A stretch of 64,000 nucleotides of DNA, taken from contig CAVYXJ010000013.1 of assembly GCA_963772455.1 (NCBI GenBank), forward strand, positions 83,163-147,162, in the 5' to 3' direction. The DNA is from Candidatus Bathyarchaeota archaeon (lineage in GTDB: Archaea > Thermoproteota > Bathyarchaeia > Bathyarchaeales > Bathycorpusculaceae). The position numbers and the translations under genes were made by a program. Shown in pieces: positions 1-26,298 of this stretch (position 1 is the stretch's first letter; the number at the start of each line of letters is the position of its first letter). The notes under the pieces were generated by a model. The model was not told the DNA's origin. It saw only the letters and a program-made list of their open reading frames with translations, and did no database searches.

Positions 1-2
1 TC

Positions 3-196
3 GGAAGCCGCATGCTCCACAAAAGGCTCAGACAGCTCGTTTTCCGGATGCGCGTACGTAAACGGAATTTTCCGCAAAGCAGGGCTTAATCTTTGCCCTT
101 GATTCCCCTAACGCGCGGGGCTCCTGCTTGGAGGTTTTATGTCATCGCTGTCGGGCTCTGCGGAAAAGCATGTGGCTTTCAAACGAAGTTGCGTTT
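3..196 (+). ncRNA. Unassigned structured RNA/ssDNA element with pseudoknot potential
   Basis: 14-bp helix 3-16/167-180 (2 G-U), helix 26-36/147-156 crossing helix 68-76/159-167, hairpins 42-46/63-67, 81-85/95-99, 105-108/117-120, 121-124/130-133, 181-185/192-196; followed by T-rich tract. Confidence 0.45.
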
Positions 197-245
197 CATC
201 AATCCCCTTTTTCATTTTTTATTATTATTAACGGAGGTGAATTAC

Positions 246-902
246 ATGAATAACAAAGTAGGAAAACTCATAAAGACAATATCAATCGATAACAAGCCAG
301 AACTTGTTCAGCATATTGAGAAACAATCGAATTTCAGCAACTACGTTCAAACACTCTTAGAGCAAGACCTTGCAAGACTTCACGCAACACAGCAACAAAA
401 ACAGACTGAAGCGAAAATAGAGCTAACAAAAGATGAATACCTCACATTCGAGCATTGTAAAAAATATTTCAGAGAATATGGCGGTATGACCTATGCAAAG
501 TACTTCCATTACTTCCCTGTGCAAATAAGCTCCGACCATCTGAATTGTTTATTGTTAGATGTTTATGATATTTGTAAAACGTATGCTCCAACAACCGCCG
601 AATACATTAAGCATATTAGAGAAAACGATGAAGACTTTGATATCTTCTACGATAAAATAAGTCGTTATTGGCAACAAGAAAATCCAATACCTGAAGACTG
701 GAAGAAAGAAATCATACCTGGAATGACATTGCATGAAGCACTTTCAAAGATTATACCTGAAGCTATCAAGCTAAAAGACAAAGATATTCCATTAACAATC
801 AAACGAATCAGCGAGATAGTGGGGTTAACCTATCAGCAAACATACACACAACTAATGCCACATATCAGACCTATTCTAAAAGAGCTACAGGTTGAAGTTT
901 AA
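246..902 (+). CDS. Hypothetical DNA-binding protein, N-terminal ribbon-helix-helix-like and C-terminal HTH-like segments
   Basis: GGAGGTGA RBS at 234-241 favours ATG 246; KTISID..PELVQHIEK..FSNYVQTLLEQDL RHH pattern; LTIKRISEIVGLTYQQTY HTH pattern. Confidence 0.6.
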   Translation: MNNKVGKLIKTISIDNKPELVQHIEKQSNFSNYVQTLLEQDLARLHATQQQKQTEAKIELTKDEYLTFEHCKKYFREYGGMTYAKYFHYFPVQISSDHLNCLLLDVYDICKTYAPTTAEYIKHIRENDEDFDIFYDKISRYWQQENPIPEDWKKEIIPGMTLHEALSKIIPEAIKLKDKDIPLTIKRISEIVGLTYQQTYTQLMPHIRPILKELQVEV

Positions 903-1720
903 TAATAATAAAAAAAAATAAACCCTTTCTTTTTTGTTAAACTAATCGAGGCAATCTTAACCTGATGTTTCCTTAACGTTAACATGAATAGTGAAGTCAG
1001 CGTTACCGCAGTAAACAGCGTTATAATTGCTAACAATGAAAACTCTGGAACAGTGGGAGTTGGCGTTGGATTGGGAGTGGGAGAAGCAGATGAAGTTTCA
1101 CCGATGGTTATTGTTTGTGTATCGCTCCAATCGCTTGTTTCACCGATAAAAGTCCATCCGCTTGGACTTGATTCAGAGTTATAGCTAATGTAGCCTATGA
1201 ATGCTTTAACTTGAAAATCAATTTGGGAGTCAGGTGGTAACGTTGGACCGAACCCATTCCATCCAGCCGATGAATAGTCTCCTTTATACGAAAAAACCGA
1301 ATACTCTGTTTTTAATTGGGCATCTTCTACCGTCAACATAGCATATTCATCATAGGGGTAATACTTCTGATGCCAGTCTTTTTCAAAATGTCCCTTCCAA
1401 TGAATCTCATAGTGAAGATAAACAGTCCTGTCCCCAATCTGTTCCTTGATTGTAAAAGGGGTGAATGGCTGATTCTTTACCGAAAGTTGAATGGTTCTTG
1501 ATTCAACATGCCGTCCAGCCTCGTTTATAACCTGTCCGTTGAAAGGGTTTACCGTTGAAGAAGGTGGAATATCATAAGAGGAGTCGATAAGGGTAACATT
1601 AAACTCAGGCACAGAGGGTTTAGGTATTGACTGAGCATATGCAGATTCAATCATTATCAGACTTGAAACTGCTAAGACAATAACAAGAAGTAACGAGAAC
1701 CCTTTGCCGATACTGCCCAT
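899..1720 (-). CDS. Secreted PEF-CTERM-type membrane-anchored surface protein (family A paralogue 1)
   Basis: Signal peptide ..AYAQSIPKPSVPEF; Pro/Thr linker PTPTVPEF + TM helix + basic tail RKH. Confidence 0.8.
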   Translation of the reverse strand: MGSIGKGFSLLLVIVLAVSSLIMIESAYAQSIPKPSVPEFNVTLIDSSYDIPPSSTVNPFNGQVINEAGRHVESRTIQLSVKNQPFTPFTIKEQIGDRTVYLHYEIHWKGHFEKDWHQKYYPYDEYAMLTVEDAQLKTEYSVFSYKGDYSSAGWNGFGPTLPPDSQIDFQVKAFIGYISYNSESSPSGWTFIGETSDWSDTQTITIGETSSASPTPNPTPTPTVPEFSLLAIITLFTAVTLTSLFMLTLRKHQVKIASISLTKKKGFIFFYYY

Positions 1721-1744
1721 ATCAAGTACTAAGAGAATAGAAGC

Positions 1745-1753
1745 GATAAAAGG
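1745..1753 (-). promoter_or_regulatory. TATA box of leaderless promoter
   Basis: CCTTTTATC on minus strand, 26 nt from ATG 1720, same spacing as other array genes. Confidence 0.55.
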
Positions 1754-2225
1754 TTTATTCCAAAAAACTATACTATTTCAATTCTCCTAATTTGATTCGC
1801 TTTGAGAGTTGTTGTACTTTTCGAGGTTGCTTCGTTGTTGGTATCGTAAATGTTGAGAAAGCTAAAAGCTGCAAATTCCATTAGAAATAGGTTTAAGATG
1901 GAAAAACTCCATTCTTTTGCTAATGTTCACCGCGTGGGTATCGTGGCAGATGAATGCTGTTTCATTGAACATGTTTGCAATTATCGAAGCTAAAATTTGA
2001 AGTAAACATTGAAACAAGGTAAAATATGCCTTAATTTTCAATTTTACAGAGAATTTTTACTCGATTTTCAACGAAAAAACATATTAAAAAGTCTGAAAAT
2101 TTAGGCAATTATACTTTTTTATACATAGATGAAAATGCAATTCGATAACATACTTTACTTATCGCAAACCTTCTTTGAAAACGACCGATCAACCACCCTC
2201 TGATCGCAACACAAAAAAAACTTAC

Positions 2226-2249
2226 TTTGTTAAAGTTAAGTTTATCAAG
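2226..2249. repeat. Imperfect palindrome, 9-bp arms with 6-bp spacer
   Basis: TTTGTTAAA-GTTAAG-TTTATCAAG (7/9 arm match); identical left arm at 933-941. Confidence 0.35.
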
Positions 2250-2281
2250 CTTTTCATTATAAATTTAGTTTATGCTTTTTC

Positions 2282-3226
2282 CTAAACGTTTGGTTTGTTT
2301 TGAGAGATGGTTTTTCGATGAGTTCTGTAAAACAGAAGATAGATAATAACTATAACTAATACGACAAATACGAATGGAACTATTAAGACAAAATTGTTGT
2401 CAGATACTTGAGAAGGCGTTGGCGTAGGGGTTTGCATCGGAGTTGGTAAAGGTTTTACTGAGGGCAAAGGCAAAAACGGTTCTGTCTTAATCAAATAAAT
2501 CCTTCCTGTTCGTGGATTATCGAATAAATTATATCCAACACCCAAAACAGCGAGTGCACCATTAGATGTTTCAATTATCGAAGAAATCTCAAGAGGAGCA
2601 GTGCCATCACCACCAGTGTAGGTCAGGTTTATTATCCATTGAGTGTTGTTATTTGAATCAGTTTTAATAAGGCTGCCTTGTTCTCCATAAACAAACCCGC
2701 TATCACTTGTTTGAACGAGAGTTGGAGCACTGCCTAAGTCTGGTACACTTGAATAATTTTGAATCCATTGGATGTTTCCTTGAGAATCTGTTTTAATTAA
2801 AGTAGGAGTGAATTCACGTGCCCCTCCGCCAATTAAAGCGGAAAACCAGCTTCCTGATAATTCATATCCTTCATCGCTTGTTTGGATAAATGTTGTTGCT
2901 CTAAAGTAACTGATGGTTTTATTCCATTGTAAATTGCCTGATGAATCAACTTTGTATAGGGTTGATGGTCTAATAGTGTACTGGTATGACCAACCCAAAT
3001 TCACGAAAACGTACCCTCCATCACTTGTTTGAATTAGGTTTGAAGTTGATTCAACATTAGTGTCGCCATAAGGACCAGAATCACCGTAATCTTTTTGCCA
3101 TTGTATAGTGGGAGCAGAAGTAAATGTGGTTGATTGGGCTTTCACGGTTGCAGGTTCAAGTGTAATTAAAGAAGTTAGGAACAACGCAACAAGAACCAAT
3201 GCAAAACTCTTGCTTTTCTTACCCAT
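2282..3226 (-). CDS. Secreted, C-terminally anchored protein with beta-propeller-like repeats
   Basis: Signal peptide; repeated IQTSDGGY / LxKxDSxGNxQW motifs; Pro/Thr linker, TM, basic tail. Confidence 0.75.
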   Translation of the reverse strand: MGKKSKSFALVLVALFLTSLITLEPATVKAQSTTFTSAPTIQWQKDYGDSGPYGDTNVESTSNLIQTSDGGYVFVNLGWSYQYTIRPSTLYKVDSSGNLQWNKTISYFRATTFIQTSDEGYELSGSWFSALIGGGAREFTPTLIKTDSQGNIQWIQNYSSVPDLGSAPTLVQTSDSGFVYGEQGSLIKTDSNNNTQWIINLTYTGGDGTAPLEISSIIETSNGALAVLGVGYNLFDNPRTGRIYLIKTEPFLPLPSVKPLPTPMQTPTPTPSQVSDNNFVLIVPFVFVVLVIVIIYLLFYRTHRKTISQNKPNV

Positions 3227-3248
3227 AGTAAGCTGATAGAACCATTTC

Positions 3249-3284
3249 AGATAAAAGACTTCTCGTTCAAGACTCTTGACTAAG
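3249..3284 (-). promoter_or_regulatory. Array promoter plus half junction motif
   Basis: CTTAGTCAAGAGTCTTGAACGAGAAGTCTTTTATCT (minus strand); 35/36 identical to 4992-5027; TATA 25 nt from ATG 3226. Confidence 0.7.
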
Positions 3285-3348
3285 CACTATTTGCGTTTTC
3301 TGTATGTATTATTTAGGCGAAGATGTCAGAGCATTCAGTAGATAAGTA

Positions 3349-4062
3349 TTAGGAATAGAAAATAACTTTGAGATATTTTTGCTCACTTTTTTTGTTCTTC
3401 AATTGCGATATAAGTGTAACAGTAATTATTGCTGCAGCAATTAGAAAAGCAACACCTATGTATAGATACAAATTATCCTTCTCCATTTGGGCAGTATAAG
3501 TTACCAAATACTCTTTAAAGTCAAAAACTTGTACGAATCCTCCATGTAGAAAAATTGCAGTATAGTAATTGCCTGATTCTGTAGCCCTAAAAGCTACTGC
3601 TCCATTCTTCCTTGCTACATTTGATGCCTCAAAATTAGTTCCATTTTTACTTGCCCATGCCGAGAAGTCAAAACTGTTATTGTTTAACTGAATAACAACT
3701 GATTTAAAGTTGGTAAATTGTTGCTCAGAAAAAATGAAGCCAGTTACGTAAATATCTGTGTCCCACTTAGCTTCTATGCCTTGTCCTGCGTGGAGAGATA
3801 TTGGTGGTAGATTGAGAAAATCAGTATTAGGTGGCTGAAATGGAGGATAATAATAGTTCCCATTTAGGTATGTGTTATTTACTGATGCTACTGGATTTGG
3901 GTAGTTTATGTTTGGAGTATCAGTTTGATAAGAACTCCTTATTGGAGCAGTATGTGGAGAAGCAAAGTTGAGAGAGATAAAAAATGCGCCCGTTAGAAGC
4001 AATATTAAGATAACTATTTTTACTATATTTCTAAGTCTGAATCTCTCTACCTTTGGCTTCAT
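3349..4062 (-). CDS. Membrane protein with two terminal TM helices and a glycosylated extracellular domain
   Basis: N- and C-terminal hydrophobic helices, several NxS/T sequons; start set at ATG 4062 by promoter spacing. Confidence 0.7.
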   Translation of the reverse strand: MKPKVERFRLRNIVKIVILILLLTGAFFISLNFASPHTAPIRSSYQTDTPNINYPNPVASVNNTYLNGNYYYPPFQPPNTDFLNLPPISLHAGQGIEAKWDTDIYVTGFIFSEQQFTNFKSVVIQLNNNSFDFSAWASKNGTNFEASNVARKNGAVAFRATESGNYYTAIFLHGGFVQVFDFKEYLVTYTAQMEKDNLYLYIGVAFLIAAAIITVTLISQLKNKKSEQKYLKVIFYS

Positions 4063-4088
4063 ATCCATATTCTGTAAGATGTTAGTCC

Positions 4089-4146
4089 ATAAAAGCCTTG
4101 CAGTAAACAATTCTTGACTGAGATTCGTAAAATTTCCTTTACTAAG
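4089..4146 (-). repeat. Full junction motif (4112-4146) plus TATA (4089-4095)
   Basis: Minus strand CTT-AGTAAAG-GAAA-TTTTACG-AATCTC-AGTCAAG-A, ungapped alignment to 5017-5051 and 7071-7105. Confidence 0.7.
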
Positions 4147-4968
4147 TTAAGTTTGTGTTTTTTGTGGTAGACCAACAAACCAGCAGATGACACCATAATA
4201 GTTCAGTAGCAGAGGAATTGTCCATAAGGGAAACTCTGGAACTGTCGGGGTGGGTGTCGATGATGTTATGGTTGGAGTTGGTGTTAAATTTGGTGAGGGT
4301 GAGGTTGAAGTGGAAGTTGGAAGAGGTTCAGGATAAATCAATGTTGGATATGGGGAATTATCAATACTGCTTGCAAAAACGTTTGCAGTATCACTTTGGT
4401 TAATTGTCACAGTAAGCGTATTGCTCCATCCACTATCTTGACCATTAATCACGGGATAGGGAAAAAGTGGTTGTATAACCCAGCTTTGGTAGCCAATCAT
4501 AGATATTACTTGAACATCAATCACTGAACCTTTAGAAAAATCTTGGTGGATAGTGAAATAGGTAAAAACAGAACTATAGTTTCTATTTAGGAAGCCCTCG
4601 TCTTCTCCGCCATAAAGATATTGCCAATATTCACCAAAGTGTCCCTTATAGCGGACATTGTAGAAGAAGTTAAGGTCACGTCTTGTACCATTGGGGTTTG
4701 TTAGTACAAACTGGTTGAAGGGTTGATTTTTGATTTTCCCTTCAATTTTTATATCGGTAATATGTCTGCTGGGAATAGTCGTTTGTTGCCCAGTATAGGG
4801 GTCTGTTTGGATTGTTGCAGTAGTATCATATGAATTATCAACCACTTGGATAGAAAACTGCGGAACAGATGGTTTAGGAATAGTTTGAGCATTGACGGAT
4901 TCTGTCAAAAATACAGAGAAGGCTAAGATAACTACAATTAGTACTGAGAAACCCTTGATACATTCCAT
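4147..4968 (-). CDS. PEF-CTERM-type surface protein (family A paralogue 2); +1 frameshift in TM anchor at ~4202
   Basis: MECIKGF..AQTIPKPSVPQF; PTPTVPEF; removing one A restores LLLTIMVSSAGLLVYHKKHKLNLVK matching its neighbour. Confidence 0.75.
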   Translation of the reverse strand: MECIKGFSVLIVVILAFSVFLTESVNAQTIPKPSVPQFSIQVVDNSYDTTATIQTDPYTGQQTTIPSRHITDIKIEGKIKNQPFNQFVLTNPNGTRRDLNFFYNVRYKGHFGEYWQYLYGGEDEGFLNRNYSSVFTYFTIHQDFSKGSVIDVQVISMIGYQSWVIQPLFPYPVINGQDSGWSNTLTVTINQSDTANVFASSIDNSPYPTLIYPEPLPTSTSTSPSPNLTPTPTITSSTPTPTVPEFPLWTIPLLLNYYGVICWFVGLPQKTQT

Positions 4969-5785
4969 GTTTAAGGTTAGGGTTGGTTTGTAGATAAAAG
5001 ACTTCTCGTACAAGACTCTTGACTAAGAGCAGTAAAACTTTCTTGACTAAGTTGTGTTTGTGTTTTTTGTGGTAGACCAACAAACCAGCTAACACCAGCG
5101 TTATTGTTAGTAGTAGCGGAATTGTCAATGAGGAAAACTCTGGAACGGTAGGAGTTGGCGTTGAATTAGGTGAGGGTGAAGTTGAAGTGGAAGTCTCAGG
5201 TATGGTTATTGTTTGTGTTTTACTCCAACCACTTGCTTCACCTGTAAAAACCCAAGGAGCCAAAGGTAGTTGCTGGTCTCTGAAGGAATTGCCTATCAAC
5301 GCTTCAACTTGAAAATCTGCTTGACTGCCTGAAGGAATACTCAAAATTCTTAGACTCGAATGCAAAGACTCTGCTCCCGACAAAGCGAATGAAATGATGG
5401 TACTTTGATTTCCTGAATCTTGACTTGGATATGCATCAGGACTAAAAAGCTCCTGCCAATCGGTTGAAGAATGTTCCTTCCAGCGAACATTATAGAAAAA
5501 TCCAATTCCAAAGGTATCATCAACATAAGGTTGATTCTTAATAATTATCTTTACGGCACTATATTCCATATGATATCCATTATCATTAGCTTCAAACAGT
5601 CCAGTGCTGGGATTAAGAGAGTAAGTTGGTGGTTTGTCAAAAGATGGACCTATTAACTCTAAGGTGAATTGCGGAACAGATGGTTTTGGTATTGTTTGAG
5701 CATTTACAGATTCAACCATCAGTAGACTTAGACTTGAGATAGCCATTGTTAAAATCAGAACTATTGCTAAATTCTTGCTATTCAT
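4874..5785 (-). CDS. PEF-CTERM-type surface protein (family A paralogue 3); reads through junction motif into the next gene
   Basis: AQTIPKPSVPQF..GEASGWSKTQTITIPE..PTPTVPEF, TM, HKKHKHNLVKKV; no stop until 4874. Confidence 0.75.
   Translation of the reverse strand: MNSKNLAIVLILTMAISSLSLLMVESVNAQTIPKPSVPQFTLELIGPSFDKPPTYSLNPSTGLFEANDNGYHMEYSAVKIIIKNQPYVDDTFGIGFFYNVRWKEHSSTDWQELFSPDAYPSQDSGNQSTIISFALSGAESLHSSLRILSIPSGSQADFQVEALIGNSFRDQQLPLAPWVFTGEASGWSKTQTITIPETSTSTSPSPNSTPTPTVPEFSSLTIPLLLTITLVLAGLLVYHKKHKHNLVKKVLLLLVKSLVREVFYLQTNPNLKHGMYQGFLSTNCSYLSLLCIFDRIRQCSNYS
4992..5051 (-). repeat. Full junction motif (5017-5051) plus BRE/TATA promoter
   Basis: Minus strand CTT-AGTCAAG-AAAG-TTTTACT-GCTCTT-AGTCAAG-A then GTCTTGTACGAGAAGTCTTTTATCT; TATA 26 nt from ATG 4968. 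Confidence 0.75.
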
Positions 5786-7022
5786 TGGTGGTCCTTCTAT
5801 GCTTGAGGTAAACTGCAGCTAAGAGTACAGGCACAAAGAATGTTAAAATTGCCAATACTGGAAACTCTGGAACGGTAGGTGTAGCTGTTGGTGACAAGGT
5901 AGGTGTTGGTTTAGGGGTTGTTGTAGGGGTTGAGGTGGGAATCGTTGGTGCTTCAGGGTTTGGTGCAGTTAAAAAGGGTGTGAAATTGACTGTACCTAAA
6001 TTGAAATCATTCTTTTTATCATGGATTGTTTGGCTTATCATTGCTGAATTGGTTGTTCCCCACCAATTATTAGTAGCATCCACATTTTCATTAGCTTCTG
6101 GAGCTAAGTGTATGTTTTCAGAGTTTCCGTAGATATTGTTGTTATTAATGCGTGGAGTAGGGTAGGCGATTATGCCAACTGTATTGTTAACTATTGTATT
6201 CTTTAGAATAATGCTATGGCTTGCCACTATTCCTTGATAGTTATTGATGACTATGTTTTCTTCAACCCTGCAAGAAGGACCTGATTTGATCCCAACTTTG
6301 CACCCATAGACTGTATTATTAGATAGAACATAGATGTCATGAAAACTGTTGTAAATAATGCCTATTTCTCCACCAATAACCGTGTTGTTTGAAATCGTGG
6401 AGGCATCATCGTCTGTATAAATTCCCCAATTAATGTTATGAACTACATTGCCTGAAATCGTTGCTGAAGACTTAAAAATTGACATCGTATCCCATTCGCC
6501 AAATATTTCATTGTTCGTAATTATAGTTGAACTATATTGACAGCTTATGTATCCTGTTATTGTGTTGTCGTTTATTTTTGGGGATGTGCCATTAATTTTT
6601 ATCCAGATTGATTTTAATATGGAGTTTTCTATTATGGAGCCTAATTGTGTGTTTTTGTTCCAGCTTGGGCTTGGATTCATAAATTCGATATATGATGCTC
6701 TATTATCGCCACCGTTGAAATTTACTTTTTCAGTGTTGCTGCCTTTTGCATTTATTGTGCCATTTACTAATAGGTAATGGTTGTTAAGGTTTACAGTGGC
6801 TCCAGAATCAATTGTTAATGTTGCTCCTTGACTTATGGCTACAGGACCTGCAAGATTGTATGGGCTGTTTGCTTTGGTCCAAGTTGTATCTGAGTTTATT
6901 ATCATACTGTTGATGGTAGTACCGTTTTGAGCTAATCCAAAAGGTGTAGTTCCAACAATTATTAAACTCGATACAGCCATAATTAGAACAAGGAATACTG
7001 CAAAACTCTTACTTACACCCAT
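5778..7022 (-). CDS. Right-handed beta-helix (NosD/PbH1-like) PEF-CTERM surface protein
   Basis: Repeated TISNNTV/IxNN motifs, NVDATNNWWG signature, PTVPEF + TM + KHRR. Confidence 0.8.
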   Translation of the reverse strand: MGVSKSFAVFLVLIMAVSSLIIVGTTPFGLAQNGTTINSMIINSDTTWTKANSPYNLAGPVAISQGATLTIDSGATVNLNNHYLLVNGTINAKGSNTEKVNFNGGDNRASYIEFMNPSPSWNKNTQLGSIIENSILKSIWIKINGTSPKINDNTITGYISCQYSSTIITNNEIFGEWDTMSIFKSSATISGNVVHNINWGIYTDDDASTISNNTVIGGEIGIIYNSFHDIYVLSNNTVYGCKVGIKSGPSCRVEENIVINNYQGIVASHSIILKNTIVNNTVGIIAYPTPRINNNNIYGNSENIHLAPEANENVDATNNWWGTTNSAMISQTIHDKKNDFNLGTVNFTPFLTAPNPEAPTIPTSTPTTTPKPTPTLSPTATPTVPEFPVLAILTFFVPVLLAAVYLKHRRTTNE

Positions 7023-7045
7023 AGTCAACTTATAGAACTCATTTT

Positions 7046-7105
7046 AGATAAAAGACTTCTCGTAAACGTCTATTGACTAAGCCAAGTCAAGGTTTCTTAA
7101 CTAAC
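7046..7105 (-). repeat. Leading junction motif (7071-7105) plus BRE/TATA promoter
   Basis: Minus strand GTT-AGTTAAG-AAAC-CTTGACT-TGGCTT-AGTCAAT-A; perfect TTGACT-N6-AGTCAA inverted repeat; TATA 26 nt from ATG 7022. Confidence 0.75.
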
Positions 7106-7189
7106 AAAAGGTAGACCTTCCACCTCGCCGCCATTCCTATAAAGGTGCATCCGGACAACAGACACGTGTAAAACGTGGAGGTCAACAAA

Positions 7190-7471
7190 ATGATAACACA
7201 AGTTAGTTCAACAATCGAGTTAAACCCTGAATTAGCGAATTTAGCCTATGAAATGGGTTTAAATGCGTCAAAAATCTGTGAAAACGCCCTTAAATCGGCA
7301 ATAAGGTGCCTTCAAGGCGTGAACTTGAATAAGTGTTTGGTGGACGAGCCGGGATTTGAACCCGCGACCTCCACGATGCCAACGTGGCGATCATGCCAGA
7401 CTGATCTACTCGCCCAAATTTATCTGGCTTCTGAAAGTTACCCCGCCTCATTTAATAAGCGTTTCTTATAG
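7190..7471 (+). CDS. CcdA-antitoxin-like RHH ORF reading antisense through tRNA-Ala; probable int(N) fragment of an SSV-type split integrase
   Basis: TATA ~7137, GGAGGT RBS 7177-7182; ELANLAYEMGLNASKICENALKSAI; continues in frame as LVDEPGFEPATS (antisense tRNA). Confidence 0.55.
   Translation: MITQVSSTIELNPELANLAYEMGLNASKICENALKSAIRCLQGVNLNKCLVDEPGFEPATSTMPTWRSCQTDLLAQIYLASESYPASFNKRFL
7338..7415 (-). tRNA. tRNA-Ala: tRNA-Ala(GGC), CCA encoded
   Basis: Acceptor GGGCGAG/CTCGTCC with G3:U70, anticodon arm CCACG-TTGGCAT-CGTGG, GTTCAAATC T-loop. Confidence 0.95.
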
Positions 7472-7671
7472 AGCCAAGGAAACCATCAAAAAACATTGTT
7501 GGAAAAACTTAGATGTTGTATCGACTGAAAGAAGTTAACTCTAAGCAATGAATTTTATTATTGCTTTTTTTTAGGGCTTTTTCGACATTAATTCCGGTTC
7601 CAAAGGTTTATGCGGCGTAGCTTTTTATAAGGCAAACGCAAATAGAAAAGCCAAGCAAGGTGCAAAAAGTA

Positions 7672-8724
7672 ATGCCTAAAGTTAAAGTTGCATTAATCGG
7701 CGTTGGAAACTGCGCCTCATCATTCGTTCAAGGCATCCAATACTATGGAAAACTTGAGAAACCACAAGACTGTTTTGGATTACGTAACCCAGTTCTAGCA
7801 GGTTTAAGTCCCAAAGACATCCAAGTAGTCGCGGCGTTTGATGTGGATGATCGCAAAGTCGGCAAAGATCTCTCTGAAGCGATTTTCGCCACCCCAAATA
7901 ATGCACCCAAAGTTTGTGATATCGCTCCAACAGGTGTTAAAGTCAGTAAAGGTCCATTGCTCGACGGTGTTGGAGATCAAACTAAAAAAATCGTTCAAGT
8001 CAGCAAGTTACCAGATGCAGACGCTGTTAAAGTTCTTAAAGCAGCAAGCGCAGAAATCCTGATTAATTTGCTTCCAAGTGGAGCCACAAAAGCATCCCAA
8101 TGGTACGCAGAACAAGCACTTGCTGCCGGCTGCGCTTTTGTTAATGCTACACCAAACTTTATAGCAAGCGACCTTACATGGGCTAAAAAGTTTGAGGCAG
8201 CAAAGCTTCCGCTTGTAGGCGACGACTTAGTTGATCAAGTCGGATCAACTGCCCTCCACAAGACGTTGCTTAAATTGCTCTCAGATAGTGGTGTTCGAAT
8301 TGACGAAACCTATCAGCTTGATGTGGGTGGAGGAACTGAATCCGTTGATACCATGGATCGATCACGCGATGCAAAACGTACAATAAAAACTGAATCAGTG
8401 GCAGCATCAATACCTTACAAAGCCGAAATAGTCGCAGGCTCAACCGACTATGTAGATTTCCTACAGAACAAACGTGATAGTTACTTTTGGATAAGCGGTG
8501 CCTACTTCTGCAATGCACCCATGAAAATCGACCTTAAATTCCAAACTGTGGACGCACCTAACGCTGGAAGCGTTCTCTTTGATGTAGTGCGAGCAGTAAA
8601 ATTGGCCTTGAACAAGAAACTCAACGGAGCAGTAGAGTCAGTTTGCGCTTACGGATTTAAGCGTCCACCGAAAATGGTGTCGCTTGAAGTTGCAGAAAAA
8701 GAATTCGCAAAATTCATAGCTTAG
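7672..8724 (+). CDS. ino1: myo-inositol-1-phosphate synthase
   Basis: VALIGVGNCASSFVQG, VAAFDVD..KVGKDLSEAI, GDDLVDQVG, DAPNAG. Confidence 0.9.
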   Translation: MPKVKVALIGVGNCASSFVQGIQYYGKLEKPQDCFGLRNPVLAGLSPKDIQVVAAFDVDDRKVGKDLSEAIFATPNNAPKVCDIAPTGVKVSKGPLLDGVGDQTKKIVQVSKLPDADAVKVLKAASAEILINLLPSGATKASQWYAEQALAAGCAFVNATPNFIASDLTWAKKFEAAKLPLVGDDLVDQVGSTALHKTLLKLLSDSGVRIDETYQLDVGGGTESVDTMDRSRDAKRTIKTESVAASIPYKAEIVAGSTDYVDFLQNKRDSYFWISGAYFCNAPMKIDLKFQTVDAPNAGSVLFDVVRAVKLALNKKLNGAVESVCAYGFKRPPKMVSLEVAEKEFAKFIA

Positions 8725-8727
8725 ACG

Positions 8728-9849
8728 CTAAAGCTTTTCCAACGCGTCAACTATTTTCTCTTTTATCCCATTCTGTTTTAGCGTATCTTTTAGTATGTTT
8801 ATAGTCTTTACAGGTGTTGGGTCAACTCCGCGCACCACGGCTAAGTAGACGCTTATAAAATCACCGACAAGTATGGTTGAGAGCATCTTTGCCAAAGAGC
8901 TTTTGCCCTGCACTTCCAAGTCAAACATTATAAAACCCGCTTTTTCCATGATTTGCTTAGTGATTTCAATTCGACTCTCAATTTCCACCGGTTCATCGGC
9001 ATCACGGATGAATATTACTGAGAACCATTTGCACTGTTCACCCCTGCCTTCCCAACCAACAATCTCATTATGATCCAGTTCTGGGAAATATTCCCATTTG
9101 GCTGCAGATTTGCTGTTCTCGTTAAACTGCTGCTTAAACCGCTGGGCAACACCGCGGTAGAACCCAAACCCGTAAACTACGGGCGTAGATTCATCGATGT
9201 ATTGGGCAACGTTTTTTGCAAAGTTCTCATTCGTTGGCTTTTGAGGCGAGTTGTCATCACTGATTTTTTCAAGAAGACTAAACGCTTCGTTTAGCTCTTG
9301 AGTCACGCCTTTAACTAACCTTGCTTTCTCCATGTAAACCAGAAGCGGCACAAGCATATACGGCAAGGCTGCACGCGGAGGCATTCCAGCGGGAACCTGC
9401 AGGTGGGGCACTTTGTGCTTCTGAGCGTACTTGATGAGTGCGCCGCCACTGCTAATGCAGTAAATCATGCATTTGCGTTTGAGGGCATCGAGAAAGCTGC
9501 TCAGAGTTTCTTCGGTGTCGCCCGAATAACTCGTGATGAAAACCAGCGTTTTCTTGTTCGCGTACGCTGGCAACTTGTATTCTCTGCTAATCTCGATAGG
9601 TACGGTTAACTGGGTTTTTGCCCAGTCTTTAAGTAAGTCGCCGCCGATGGCTGAACCGCCCAAACCTGCCACTACAATATTGCTGGGCTTGGGGTAATCC
9701 ACAATAATTCTGTCGGCGATTTTTGCGGCTTCGCGGTAATGTTTAGAAGCGTTAACAGAAAAATTCAGCATACCGCTTTTATCGACTGCATTTATTCTTT
9801 CAACGTTATCTAAAAGCGCTGTTGGCAACTTGGGTCCTCCAAATAACAC
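8728..9849 (-). CDS. pgi: Bifunctional phosphoglucose/phosphomannose isomerase
   Basis: SIS domain GLGGSAIGGD, SYSGDTEETL, QFNENSK, PELDHNEIVG. Confidence 0.9.
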   Translation of the reverse strand: MLFGGPKLPTALLDNVERINAVDKSGMLNFSVNASKHYREAAKIADRIIVDYPKPSNIVVAGLGGSAIGGDLLKDWAKTQLTVPIEISREYKLPAYANKKTLVFITSYSGDTEETLSSFLDALKRKCMIYCISSGGALIKYAQKHKVPHLQVPAGMPPRAALPYMLVPLLVYMEKARLVKGVTQELNEAFSLLEKISDDNSPQKPTNENFAKNVAQYIDESTPVVYGFGFYRGVAQRFKQQFNENSKSAAKWEYFPELDHNEIVGWEGRGEQCKWFSVIFIRDADEPVEIESRIEITKQIMEKAGFIMFDLEVQGKSSLAKMLSTILVGDFISVYLAVVRGVDPTPVKTINILKDTLKQNGIKEKIVDALEKL

Positions 9850-12056: not shown

Positions 12057-12374
12057 TTACCCGAATAGGGCGCCTAATCCTTCTAGTGCTGCATCTTCCT
12101 TGGCTTTCTCTTCTTCAGCTTTCTTCTTCTTGTCTTCTGGTGCGGCTGCTGCTGGTTTTGCTTCTCCTGCTGGAGCGATTGGAGCTGCTGCCATCATAGC
12201 TGGTGCGGCTTTGATTGCTTCTTCAATGTTTACTTCACTGAGTGATGCAACGAGTGCCTTTACTTGTATAGGGTCAACGGTGACGCCTGCTGCTGTGAGA
12301 ACTTTTGTTACTGATTCTTCGTTAATTTCTTTTCCTGCCTTGTGAAGGAGCATTGCTGCGTAAATATTTTCCAT
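12057..12374 (-). CDS. rpl12: Ribosomal stalk protein P1/L12p
   Basis: [24 protein letters not shown], Ala-rich hinge, GLGALFG end. Confidence 0.95.
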
Positions 12375-12649
12375 ACTTTTTCACCTCTCAATTGCACTAT
12401 TTTTAACTTTTTTATTGGTCTGATCCGCTTCGAATTTGAAGCTGATCGTTACCTGAAATGGCAGTTTTATCCGCCGTTTTCTTGCCGTTTAACAGAATAC
12501 CCGATGCCTTATGAACCTTTCGTACATGCATTATACAAGTCTAAAGTCATATTTTTCGTTATAGATTCAAAATAAAATATTGTGAGTCACCAATAACATT
12601 ATCTTGAAGAACAAACCACAAATGCGCATAGCTTGCAGGTCATGAGACA

Positions 12650-13621
12650 ATGGGAAACATTACAGTAGCCATCCTAGGACCAGTAGATTACGGCAGTAAC
12701 CTTGCCAAAAAAGGAACATCAACAGATATAACTCTCTATAACCTAAAAAAAGGCGAAGACACCGTAACCTTCATCGAACCCACAAGATACCCTGAACGAT
12801 TGGCGCCATTGTTCTATGCTTGTGCCTTGGCAAAAAAAGCCATAGTTGTCGTAGATGAGATAAACGCCACTTTTGGCGAGCAACTTGTAATGCTTCAATG
12901 CAGCGACATAAAAACTGGTTATATAATCCTGAGGAACTATGTTCCGAAAGAAAAAATTGAAGCGCTCATAAAAGGAACAAACTTGGAAAAATTTGAAATC
13001 ATAGCGGATGACCCAAACGTTCTACGTGAAAAACTGTTGGTGGAAGCTTCCCAACACAAACCAGTTGAACTTCAAGCTGGACAGCAAGCAATCGGATCGG
13101 TGCCGGTAGATCATGCTTTCAACGTTAAAGGCGTTGGAGTAGTAATTCTCGGAATCGTGGTTTACGGTGTAGTTCAGAAGCATGCAACACTCAATGTTCT
13201 TCCAGCCATCAAAACCGCCCAGGTCCGTTCCATCCAAAAACACGACGAAGAATTCGACCTTGCATGGGAAGGCGACCGCGTTGGATTAGCTTTAAAAAAT
13301 GTTGAAGTGGAAAACTTGGATCGCGGAACCGTCTTAACAAATGACCCTGCAATCAAAACTTCAACTACATTAAACACGCAGGCAACGCTTGTCAAATATT
13401 GGCAAACACCCATCAAGCCAGGCATGGTTATGCATGTTGGTCACTGGACGCAGTTCATAACCGCAAAAGTAGACACTGTATCTGACGCAGGCGACTGGAA
13501 AAAACCGACCCTAACCTTAACGCTTGATAAACCACTCGTCCACCGCCCAAACGATAAAGCTGTACTGATGTATTTGGAAGGAGCTAAACTTCGTATAGCT
13601 GGAACCATAGATCTGCTATAG
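12650..13621 (+). CDS. SelB-II / EF-Tu domain II-III protein with degenerate G domain
   Basis: KKGTSTDIT, VDHAFNVKGVGVVILG, VRSIQKHD, GDRVGLALK; no GxxxxGKT. Confidence 0.8.
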   Translation: MGNITVAILGPVDYGSNLAKKGTSTDITLYNLKKGEDTVTFIEPTRYPERLAPLFYACALAKKAIVVVDEINATFGEQLVMLQCSDIKTGYIILRNYVPKEKIEALIKGTNLEKFEIIADDPNVLREKLLVEASQHKPVELQAGQQAIGSVPVDHAFNVKGVGVVILGIVVYGVVQKHATLNVLPAIKTAQVRSIQKHDEEFDLAWEGDRVGLALKNVEVENLDRGTVLTNDPAIKTSTTLNTQATLVKYWQTPIKPGMVMHVGHWTQFITAKVDTVSDAGDWKKPTLTLTLDKPLVHRPNDKAVLMYLEGAKLRIAGTIDLL

Positions 13622-15067: not shown

Positions 15068-16058
15068 TGGCGTCAACGTACATTTGTGCACAGCAAAAAG
15101 ACGAAAAATCCGTATTGTAACCCCTTCTTTTTGCGTATTCAACTCCTTCTTCACTTGGGAACGCAATGGCGTCAACTCCCGCTTTCAATGCTAAAACGTC
15201 AGCTTCTGCTCGGCTTCTACCTTTAGGACGCATGCATCCTAAAATAAGGGGGGTTTCCGGAAACATTAGCCTTGCCAACGCAGCAACTTTAGATATATCG
15301 ACTGGTTTGGGGGGCGGTGTTTTTGCCATAGCTGTTCCAAGGATAGGCATGAACGCAATTATCACAAGCGCAGATGGCTTAATCTTCTGTATCATTTGGA
15401 GCGCCTGAATTTCCCCGTCGAGTTTGCCATCGTTTAACCCAACGATAACGTGGGGAACGATGTTTAATTTTGCTTCTTGAAGCACCTTGAGTGAATTGGC
15501 GTAATCTTTGATTGTTACTTTGAGGTTGTATATTTTCTCTACTGTTTCAGCTGAGCCAATAACATCGATTAAAGCGGCGTCAATGCAAGCTTTCTTGAGT
15601 GCGACAGCAGTTTCCTGCTTGACTATGCCTGTGTGAACAAAGACTGTTAAGCTGAGTTCCTGCTTAAGTCGCCCAAGTACAGGTACAAAATCGTTTAAAG
15701 GCACTGAGCCGTCCGGTAAGCATCCGCCACTGACAAGGCACCCTTTAGCGCCGTTTTTCTTCAATTTCAACCCTAAATCAAATAGCCCATCGGGGGTCAT
15801 TGCCGACTGCATTGTTTCAAGGACTTTGCCTCCGCAATGTTTGCAATTCAACGCGCAGGCGTTGCCAGTTATTGATATTGTCGGGAATGAGTTTGTTGAA
15901 GAGCAATAATGTTTGGTTTTGTAGTAGGTGAAGCTGGGAGCGTAAAAACGAATAGTGTTTTGCCTTGGTTTGAGGCTTTCTGAATCCAGTAGAGCGCGAA
16001 ATTCAGTTTCGTTTAGGCTCCAAAGAGCTCCTGGAGAAAGATTTTGCATATTTTTCAA
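15057..16058 (-). CDS. Radical SAM protein (biotin-synthase-related, COG1856-like)
   Basis: ISITGNACALNCKHCGG (CxxxCxxC), GCLVSGG, VPHVIVGL. Confidence 0.85.
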   Translation of the reverse strand: MKNMQNLSPGALWSLNETEFRALLDSESLKPRQNTIRFYAPSFTYYKTKHYCSSTNSFPTISITGNACALNCKHCGGKVLETMQSAMTPDGLFDLGLKLKKNGAKGCLVSGGCLPDGSVPLNDFVPVLGRLKQELSLTVFVHTGIVKQETAVALKKACIDAALIDVIGSAETVEKIYNLKVTIKDYANSLKVLQEAKLNIVPHVIVGLNDGKLDGEIQALQMIQKIKPSALVIIAFMPILGTAMAKTPPPKPVDISKVAALARLMFPETPLILGCMRPKGRSRAEADVLALKAGVDAIAFPSEEGVEYAKRRGYNTDFSSFCCAQMYVDAIKL

Positions 16059-25788: not shown

Positions 25789-26298
25789 TTTGTTTGGTTT
25801 TAGCTTTAAGTTTTGCCTTTTGACCTTGATTTTCTGCCTTTCCTAGTGAATTCAACCGATTCCATAACTCGAAAAGTTCCCATTTAATCGGTAGTATGTG
25901 TGCCCATCATTTAACTTATTCTTGGGTGTTGTCCTGACTCTGTTTTTGCTTAGAGAACTGTTCTGAACGGCTCCTCTATAATTAGCAATAAAAGCGCAGC
26001 GGAATTTCTTTATCATAGGTTGCAAAACAGCCTTTCTTTCCAAATGGGTGTTTCCATTTTTTGTAGATTGCCGTTGTTTCGTTTATGCTTCTTACGAGGT
26101 ATCCTGTGCTTTTCCTTAAGTGGCTTTTCCAGAAAAATTTTGTGGCGAGTAAACATTTTTTTCTGGCGCTTAGTCAATATTTGTCTAGACTACGACCCAC
26201 CCTGCTATTCAGTGTGCAAATAAGTAACCTGCAACAACAAAATATTTCATTAACGTATCCGTACTTTGGAATAAGGCAAGACAAAAAACCGTGGGCAA

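Follow-up and report, generated by a model that had tools for sequence, protein, structure and literature searches.

Is the motif that recurs at gene starts in a tandem array of surface-protein genes a site of recombination, or is it a part of the promoters? The question is raised by a 64,000-nucleotide stretch of DNA from a Candidatus Bathyarchaeota archaeon (contig CAVYXJ010000013.1, positions 83,163 to 147,162; this whole stretch is called the window below), where the array lies divergent from a small open reading frame (ORF) that resembles the N-terminal part of an integrase. A preliminary description of the window took the motif for the recombination site of an integron-like capture system and gave as its alternative an activator operator copied together with the promoter. 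It is the alternative that the evidence favours: the motif is probably the operator of a cell-envelope regulon, located on surface-protein genes that are the cargo of tandem elements integrated at a tRNA-Ala gene. In the following, G000 denotes the window's own genome (24 contigs), C13 its contig holding the window, and L016 a stretch that includes DNA to the left of the window.

Scanning with the pattern AGTHAAG-N17-AGTCAAK gave three exact matches in the window, all on the minus strand (4113–4143, 5018–5048 and 7072–7102), and the arm CTTAGTCAAGA is seen again at 3274–3284 as a half copy. When up to one mismatch is allowed, five matches are found, compared with a mean of 0.16 in shuffled sequences, and none of 100 shuffles attains five, confirming the three full copies and the half copy described earlier. 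One-mismatch matches at 26148–26178 (plus strand) and 15594–15624 (minus strand) both score under the threshold of the position weight matrix (PWM) for the motif. The long ORFs of 899–7028 are all on the minus strand, and each motif copy thus stands 5′ of a gene. As had been proposed, the copies sit at gene boundaries upstream of a TATA box: a TTTTAT box adjoins each of them (7048–7053, 4994–4999, 4089–4094 and 3251–3256, with ATGs at 7022, 4968, 4068 and 3226), and an alignment of five upstream regions places an ATG 20–25 nt downstream of every such box in the array.

The alignment also showed that the unit is larger than the 35-bp motif, the third arm being followed by a fourth, which is degenerate and inverted (TKTACG). 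The full unit consists of two 22-bp dyads, TTAGTCAAG-N4-CTTGACTAA, with centres 24 bp apart, then 7–8 bp, then the TATA box, giving a promoter module of about 58 bp of which the 35-bp motif is the upstream part. The promoter-proximal dyad is degenerate (...TTTACGA) and ends 7–8 bp upstream of TTTTAT, these 7–8 bp being the expected place of the TFB-recognition element (BRE), and the half copy at 3274–3284 belongs to a promoter that lacks the distal dyad. The four modules of the array are as follows.

7048–7105, minus strand: promoter module P1 of gene 5778–7022; distal dyad 7083–7104, proximal dyad 7059–7080, TATA box 7048–7053; PWM score 40.6.
4994–5051, minus strand: promoter module P2 of gene 4147–4968; distal dyad 5029–5050, proximal dyad 5005–5026, TATA box 4994–4999; PWM score 48.0.
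4089–4146, minus strand: promoter module P3 of gene 3349–4068; distal dyad 4124–4145, proximal dyad 4100–4121, TATA box 4089–4094; PWM score 43.0.
3251–3284, minus strand: promoter module P4 of gene 2282–3226; proximal dyad only, with TATA box 3251–3256.

P1 is located in the divergent intergenic region common to gene 5778–7022 and the integrase fragment. It had been regarded as the best conserved copy, which the scores contradict, since the highest belongs to P2 (copy 5017–5051). The distal dyad of P2 carries the inverted arm TTTTAC instead of TTTGAC. Nor does every array gene have a copy: P1 to P4 serve four genes, gene 899–1720 has a TATA box without the motif, and gene 5785→5033 lacks a separate promoter, for it starts before gene 5778–7022 has ended, with an overlap of 8 nt, and the two are probably co-transcribed.

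The same architecture recurs in the rest of the genome and in the genus. The full double pattern occurs ten times in G000, on contigs C4, C10, C12, C13, C23 and C24, and all copies are gene-oriented and in register with TTTTAT and ATG. With the PWM, 37 sites in G000 score 12 or more, versus 3–4 in shuffled genomes, and the proximal dyad combined with the TATA box gives 22 matches on 11 contigs, versus one in the reversed genome. The double pattern was found in 11 of 18 congeners and in none of 12 genomes from other genera of the order, and its middle arm, which the pattern leaves unspecified, is almost always TTGACT across the congeners. In a larger set of 61 congeneric genomes, the proximal dyad plus TATA box yielded 106 matches in 33 genomes, with at most ten strict-pattern matches per genome and none for a reversed-pattern control; in well-assembled congeners, these are spread over megabases of chromosome. 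When one site per genome was aligned (29 genomes), the distal dyad, which the search did not force, was conserved, whereas the spacers, the DNA further upstream and the DNA downstream of the TATA box were not.

The downstream ORFs in congeners have a hydrophobic, signal-like N-terminus in all 28 sampled cases, versus 22% of all ORFs of at least 200 aa, and in 18 of these 28 targets the ATG follows the TATA box by 23–25 nt. The targets belong to unrelated families, i.e., NosD/beta-helix, Big_7 and Pfam-less families. One module (G000:C10:281540–285012) precedes an operon of a NAD-dependent epimerase and a GT4-like glycosyltransferase, beside a DegT-like aminotransferase; the operon's products are cytoplasmic and non-homologous to the secreted targets. 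Since an operator-bearing promoter precedes these two genes, glycan-synthesis genes appear to belong to the same regulon. A 66% homologue beside the genes for enolase and ribosomal protein S2 retains the module, whereas an 81% homologue has another promoter. The top-scoring double operator of G000 (C10:419394–419650, PWM score 50.4) is followed by a TATA-like box and by no long ORF for about 400 nt; a 41-aa Cys-rich ORF (MQKKGCIFCAICHQ...) begins about 95 nt past this box, upstream of a proteasome beta-subunit gene.

The position and symmetry of the module suggest how it might work. A DNA-binding regulator occupying both dyads would be a dimer, given the dyad symmetry with 9-bp arms, and the presence of two dyads suggests cooperative binding. 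Archaeal regulators bound directly upstream of BRE are generally activators that aid the recruitment of TFB and TBP. As the dyads lie just upstream of BRE and TATA, such a regulator would most likely activate in this way, and an ATG 23–25 nt after the TATA box points to leaderless mRNA. Secreted and anchored proteins, and with them one glycan-synthesis operon or more, would thereby be co-regulated in this genus of Bathyarchaeia. The window would hold several copies because its genes belong to the regulon, and the array genes have probably multiplied as units with conserved junctions (anchor end, operator, promoter and signal-peptide start). No regulator-like ORF was noticed among the 18 ORFs downstream of the own-genome sites, which were read by eye without a family-model scan.

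Known archaeal activator sites, namely the EarA boxes of the Methanococcus maripaludis fla promoter and the TrmBL1 TGM palindrome of Pyrococcus, resemble the module in placing several short elements directly upstream of BRE/TATA. Ptr2 of M. jannaschii is another archaeal upstream activator system. EarA acts on the fla operon through four 6-bp sites just upstream of BRE and controls a cell-surface structure (PMC5512572), and TrmBL1 activates from upstream and represses from downstream (PMC4706686). However, compared with these two motifs, the only ones compared, TTAGTCAAG-N4-CTTGACTAA differs in sequence, has two dyads with 24-bp phasing, serves a large set of secreted-protein genes and was seen in only one of the Bathyarchaeia genera sampled.

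The second part of the question concerns the ORF opposite P1 and the tRNA gene that it enters.

7190–7383, plus strand: int(N)′, N-terminal integrase fragment; an N-terminus like CcdA or ribbon-helix-helix (RHH) proteins (weak CcdA match), then the antisense of the tRNA-Ala 3′ part.
7334–7383, no strand: core of the attachment (att) site, attR; about 50 bp, made up of 4 nt and the 3′ 46 nt of tRNA-Ala.
7338–7415, minus strand: tRNA-Ala(GGC), the integration target, from tRNA finding and Rfam.

From a start at 7175 or 7190, the ORF runs to 7471 only by reading through the tRNA, and a search of 1–9000 against Rfam found the tRNA only. The earlier reading of this ORF as int(N)-like was borne out, as it matches the first 70 aa encoded by an integrase (int) gene at C13:80359 with 88.6% identity over 70 aa, and the antisense of the tRNA-Ala 3′ 46 nt is translated as integrase residues ~50–66. 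The att core is common to a left copy (C13:80518–80567), the right copy (7334–7383) and the empty sites of congeners. Around it, an 84-bp direct repeat joins window 7300–7383 (38 nt plus the tRNA-Ala 3′ 46 nt) to C13:80484–80567, 2.7 kb left of the window, and at lower identity the repeat extends over about 300 bp, spanning the int promoter and the first ~70 codons. The left int copy continues into a tyrosine-recombinase body broken by two frameshifts; in the full-length gene (L016 12360–13495, equal to C13:80359–81494), these are +1 shifts near 12820–12836 and 13073–13092. Its pieces (L016 12820–13495) match PF00589 (E 1.6e-4), PF16795 ("archaeal phage integrase", E 3.6e-4) and a PHROG integrase (E 4e-7), below the Pfam cut-offs, and a PDB sequence search with them returned only a weak match to XerA (E 0.05). 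The related proteins P0134 and P0214 have integrase domains above the cut-off.

A search of 1.8 billion representative proteins with the N-terminal 158 aa of the integrase returned three classes: dozens of proteins of 60–130 aa matching only residues 1–72, proteins starting at about residue 57 with the catalytic domain, and a few intact proteins of 280–380 aa with a CcdA-like N-terminus, SAM-like and Phage_integrase domains. Because the database fragments split at one point (~residue 57–72) while the intact relatives carry integrase domains, this pattern is the signature of the SSV type. Judged from its sequence, ORF 7190–7383 is the N-terminal fragment of a tyrosine integrase of the SSV or "suicidal" type, which has the 3′ part of tRNA-Ala as its attachment site. 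In such integrases, integration splits the gene because the att site is inside it (PMC7253208). The integrase would thus recombine at the ~50-bp tRNA segment within its own gene and not at the motif. An intact relative, P0128 (L106 5562–6527, 36% identical in the aligned N-terminal part), has the antisense of another tRNA 3′ end at the same position; other tRNA segments at this position are likewise found in SSV-type integrases, and the substitution fits the target-site switching described for suicidal integrases.

The att repeats bound DNA that is absent from related genomes. In congener G011, a flank homologous to C13:75061–75342 is followed by 242 bp and then tRNA-Ala, whereas in G000 15.1 kb lie between. 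The site is likewise empty in G012 and G055, the gap from flank to tRNA being 77–260 bp across the three genomes. About 15.1 kb at tRNA-Ala, with the whole array, are therefore missing in G011, G012 and G055, in agreement with the earlier statement that the array lies in mobile, strain-variable DNA. In eight congeners, no dyad was found within 16 kb to the left of tRNA-Ala. Genome G067 has two haplotype contigs at this tRNA, one with an Int(N) scar only (C9:79800–98000, L104) and one occupied (C11:1–1700, L105), in which Int(N) adjoins tRNA-Ala and is accompanied by an operator and a beta-helix surface gene, with 89% identity to window 7042–7472; either the bin combines two strains or the site is polymorphic.

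Two further features describe the inserted DNA.

1–7299, no strand: window part of element E2 (C13:80568–90461), delimited by the direct repeats and by the empty sites in G011, G012 and G055.
2017–2343, no strand: mostly non-coding repeat, 88% identical to C13:75571–75899, linking a second element, E1, to the inner part of E2.

In E2, six surface genes and four small ORFs are accompanied by Int(C) and Int(N)′, and surface-protein genes account for about 60% of the element; the 2.6 kb at its left end, which hold the frameshifted int(C) and small ORFs, fall outside the window (L016 12569–15163). E1 (C13:75343–80483), whose left end matches window 2017–2343 at 88% identity, has Int(N) and four surface genes. 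The repeat belongs to a ~330-bp, mostly non-coding segment (window 1721–2343) downstream of the genes ending "...QNKPNV", of which the last ~100 bp are found again on C5, C6, C11 and C12. In E2, Int(N)′ is at the right end (7190–7383), whereas Int(C) stands immediately inward of the left repeat, where it is fused to a second Int(N) in the manner of a tandem junction. The locus looks like two tandem related elements, E1 having lost its left part; the Int(N) of E1 would then be fused to the frameshifted Int(C) of E2, and the lone Int(N)′ would abut the tRNA. We infer the order of the integration events on this basis, as the simplest history of the locus. An arrangement with a surface gene, an operator and int(N) occurs at three places: E1 (L016 ~12220–12375), E2 and G067:C11.

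SSV-type elements (SSV1 and the pT26-2 family) likewise have an att site inside int that matches a tRNA 3′ part, an Int(N)/Int(C) split and a hybrid int at tandem junctions (PMC7253208, PMC8371274). However, these integrases are described there from hyperthermophilic archaea (PMC7253208), whereas here the type is met in a metagenome-assembled genome (MAG) of soil or sediment Bathyarchaeia and with a CcdA/RHH-like N-terminus. No capsid or replication genes were recognised in the element, and IMG/VR held no relatives of ORF 246–902 or of the Int C-piece. The GC content of the island (0.32–0.40) is not distinct from that of the genome contigs (0.37–0.41). In public reads, four freshwater-sediment runs contain at most 8% of the sampled words, as short Logan contigs, and all of the "joints" seen in them have sides of 21–37 nt at repeated modules with 90% likeness, and may come from other organisms. 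In one contig of depth 4.4 (L052 16465→6493), the right int(N)′ is joined with the left core, for which an excised circle, a free element and a variant of the E1|E2 junction are equally good explanations. Both components, the operator module and the integrated element, are of known kinds.

Several observations weigh against the operator-and-element interpretation and limit its weight. The roles of "operator" and "activator" are assigned solely from position and conservation. The strict pattern has no match in 28 of the 61 congeners. The site counts are non-independent, because many targets are paralogous or carry junction modules inherited by duplication, and the identical spacer bases within G000, G055 and G067 (identical 31-mers, spacers included, found 5, 8 and 4 times, respectively) show copying by descent or conversion besides selection. 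On the side of the element, the two frameshifts in int could mean a pseudogene or an assembly error, and the tandem-element history is a reconstruction, as neither an att core nor Int(C) is present where E1 begins on the left.

An extension of this interpretation would make the tRNA-Ala insertions members of a family of self-splitting-integrase elements and mobile, host-regulated vehicles for cell-coat change in Bathyarchaeia, with a surface gene and the genus secretome operator as conserved cargo and with genes exchanged between element-borne and chromosomal arrays by homologous recombination at the junction modules; we regard this as doubtful. tRNA-linked genomic islands with cell-surface genes occur in many bacteria and in haloarchaea. 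They share with this locus the strain-variable DNA at a tRNA site, the integrase and the surface cargo, whereas here the cargo promoters carry an operator of the host genus and the integrase splits its own gene.

Among the competing explanations, the one that survives best concerns the junction modules themselves. BLAST of the island against G000 revealed that nearly only modules of 60–330 bp are in common, at 80–100% identity, each covering the 3′ anchor-coding tail, the operator, the promoter and the signal-peptide start. The bodies of the genes are different, as the preliminary description had noted in calling the cargo between copies diverse, and the modules are present also at loci on C5, C6, C12, C16, C21 and C24. 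Such modules could, apart from any part they play in regulation, let homologous recombination swap central domains and move genes between chromosomal arrays and integrated elements, thereby generating surface variation; this would be a weaker form, driven by homology, of the shuffling that the preliminary description proposed. In P2, for example, a 99-bp stretch is 93% identical to C13:77035–77133 and is flanked on both sides by unrelated gene bodies; array gene order and content are not conserved in G055 or G067, whereas the modules are; and short metagenome contigs join modules in other combinations, a weak indication. In addition, gene 2282–3226 with its promoter (window 2224–3283) is 92% identical over 1060 bp to G055:C3:122820–123881, an integrase-free, unrelated locus, compared with 76–87% for the flanking core genes, which may reflect recent transfer or strong constraint. 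However, the joints have the short, 90%-alike sides described above and possibly stem from other organisms, and conserved ends are also expected from the constraints of secretion and anchoring. We consider exchange of this kind unlikely.

It is less plausible still that the module is a passive hitch-hiker, i.e., the promoter of one expanding paralogous family without any sequence-specific regulator, its copies staying alike through recent duplication and gene conversion. That the junction modules are the only DNA common to the array genes and to the loci on the six other contigs would agree with this, as would the identical 31-mers. However, the dyad arms are conserved across 29 genomes in which the spacers and flanks vary, the module also stands before non-homologous proteins, including the epimerase operon, and dyad symmetry with a fixed 24-bp phasing is unexpected in neutral promoter DNA. 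We therefore consider this quite improbable.

The integron-like or Flp/FRT-like reading, in which the copies are tyrosine-recombinase core sites that shuffle self-promoted surface cassettes, has a number of features in its favour. Inverted arms surround a 6-bp spacer and are accompanied by a direct repeat; the copies are placed at gene boundaries, and the cargo that separates them is unrelated; a genuine integrase fragment is divergent to the first copy; and the gene content of the locus differs among relatives. As in an integron, a tyrosine-recombinase fragment is thus divergent to diverse same-strand genes separated by an imperfect inverted repeat, and as in FRT, two inverted arms about a short spacer are joined by a third, direct-repeat arm. 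However, many unlinked genes have the motif at a fixed distance from TATA and ATG, both on 11 contigs of G000 and in 33 of 61 congeners, where more than 100 promoters carry it. Integrase relatives were found in only 6 of 60 congeners, as weak matches and mostly fragments; G001 has seven dispersed copies of the motif and no match to the integrase; and arrays with identical modules in G055 lack both integrase and tRNA. One of the latter (L097, G055:C4:714000–733900) has about ten tandem surface-protein genes and, by eye, possibly a transposase-like ORF at one end.

The comparison with known recombination systems fails in detail as well. Integron cassettes are promoterless and depend on a common Pc, whereas P1 to P4 each have their own TTTTAT box. 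In an integron, an IntI-type enzyme beside attI acts on cassette sites restricted to the adjoining array, and attC, an imperfect palindrome, stands at the 3′ end of a cassette; the repeats here are 5′ of genes, with the promoter, and genome-wide without an integrase. When either strand of the three copies is folded as single-stranded DNA, the result is no better than for shuffled sequences (z −1.23 to +0.96), in contrast to attC-like hairpins. FRT has 13-bp arms around 8 bp, whereas the motif has four arms at a 12-bp period in a fixed promoter register, and no Flp-like enzyme is present. The integrase at hand is of the SSV type, with the tRNA-Ala core inside its own ORF as att site. On account of distribution, promoter register, lack of a hairpin fold and the tRNA att site, this reading is rejected, with a negligible probability left to it. 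The preliminary description would itself have taken as a refutation a motif found upstream of many unlinked core genes and bound by a transcription factor; the first of these, factor binding excepted, is largely what was found, and most of the congeners that carry the motif have no relative of this integrase.

A similarly slight chance is given to the idea that the motif serves as arm-type sites bound by the RHH-like N-terminus of the integrase, or by the RHH-like ORF 246–902, for assembly of a recombination complex or control of the int promoter. The E2 operator is indeed 32 nt from the TATA-like box of int (7137–7144), with the same juxtaposition in E1 and G067:C11, and the integrase family has a CcdA/RHH-like N-terminus; however, the motif is far commoner than the integrase and tied to secreted-protein promoters genus-wide, and the locus of the intact relative (L106) has no such dyad near its int gene. 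A mobile repeat resembling a miniature inverted-repeat transposable element was rejected since conservation is confined to the dyad arms and TATA, all copies are in register with secreted-protein gene starts and the flanks are unrelated, and a terminator or a coding constraint of the upstream gene's tail since the module also occurs without a co-oriented upstream gene (7048–7105, C10:283831).

With the motif read as the operator of a cell-envelope regulon, the locus bears on several matters. In Bathyarchaeia, which are abundant and for the most part uncultured, gene regulation is poorly known; the module offers a predictor of the regulated secretome, a bait for the regulator and a promoter/operator pair for genetic tools. 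The locus extends the "suicidal" SSV-type integrases to a soil/sediment lineage, together with host-regulated surface-protein genes, and is relevant to strain-level surface diversity and possibly to virus–host interplay. It is also cautionary, in that a repeat resembling a recombination site beside a real integrase fragment is a promoter element.

The genes of the array and the ORF to its left are listed below.

5778–7022, minus strand: secreted parallel beta-helix protein, 414 aa; TIGR03804 repeat (E 8e-4), signal peptide, proline- and threonine-rich (PT-rich) linker, VPEF, transmembrane (TM) segment and basic tail.
4874–5785, minus strand: ~260-aa secreted family member without a Pfam match; best match PEF-CTERM TIGR03024, E 0.095, below cut-off.
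4147–4968, minus strand: ~260-aa secreted family member whose C-terminal anchor is in another frame than in its paralogues.
3349–4068, minus strand: membrane or secreted protein, 239 aa; hydrophobic segments at both termini, no family match.
2282–3226, minus strand: secreted repeat protein, 314 aa, with a C-terminal TM segment and the tail ...ISQNKPNV.
899–1720, minus strand: ~260-aa secreted family member with VPEF, TM segment and basic tail; own TATA box, no operator.
246–902, plus strand: element ORF, 218 aa, with an N-terminus like phrog_14312 (E 1.3e-5).

Typical of the array products are an N-terminus like a signal peptide, a PT-rich linker and, at the C-terminus, VPEF, a TM segment and a basic tail. 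In tandem arrays, the distal dyad overlaps the last codons of the upstream gene (...N-L-V-K-K-V-stop), the TGA stop being within the inverted arm TTTGAC; this tail is encoded by the distal operator at window 5033–5053 and likewise at L016 11272–11292. In the copy at 5017–5051, comparison of the window sequence with the paralogue tails shows the TGA mutated to TTA (5035–5033), and ORF 5785→4874 therefore continues through P2, gaining about 53 residues read through the operator, the TATA box and the start of the next gene. At the 3′ end of gene 4147–4968 (4147–4230), the DNA is homologous to that of the paralogues in another frame, ending ...GLPQKTQT instead of ...GLLVYHKKHKH, which suggests decay or a variant anchor.

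The protein of gene 899–1720 has 844 homologues, all unnamed or hypothetical and one of them from a Bathyarchaeia MAG, and relatives of a flanking core gene come from Candidatus Bathyarchaeota/Bathyarchaeia MAGs of soil, bog and fen. VPEF tails are visible in 899–1720, 4874–5785 and 5778–7022, and the top match to the PEF-CTERM model TIGR03024, at the E-value listed above, reaches 13 bits versus a cut-off of 23. Genes of the exosortase/archaeosortase family are present in G000, with PF09721 above its cut-off at C11:89815–90327 and C10:119378–120175.

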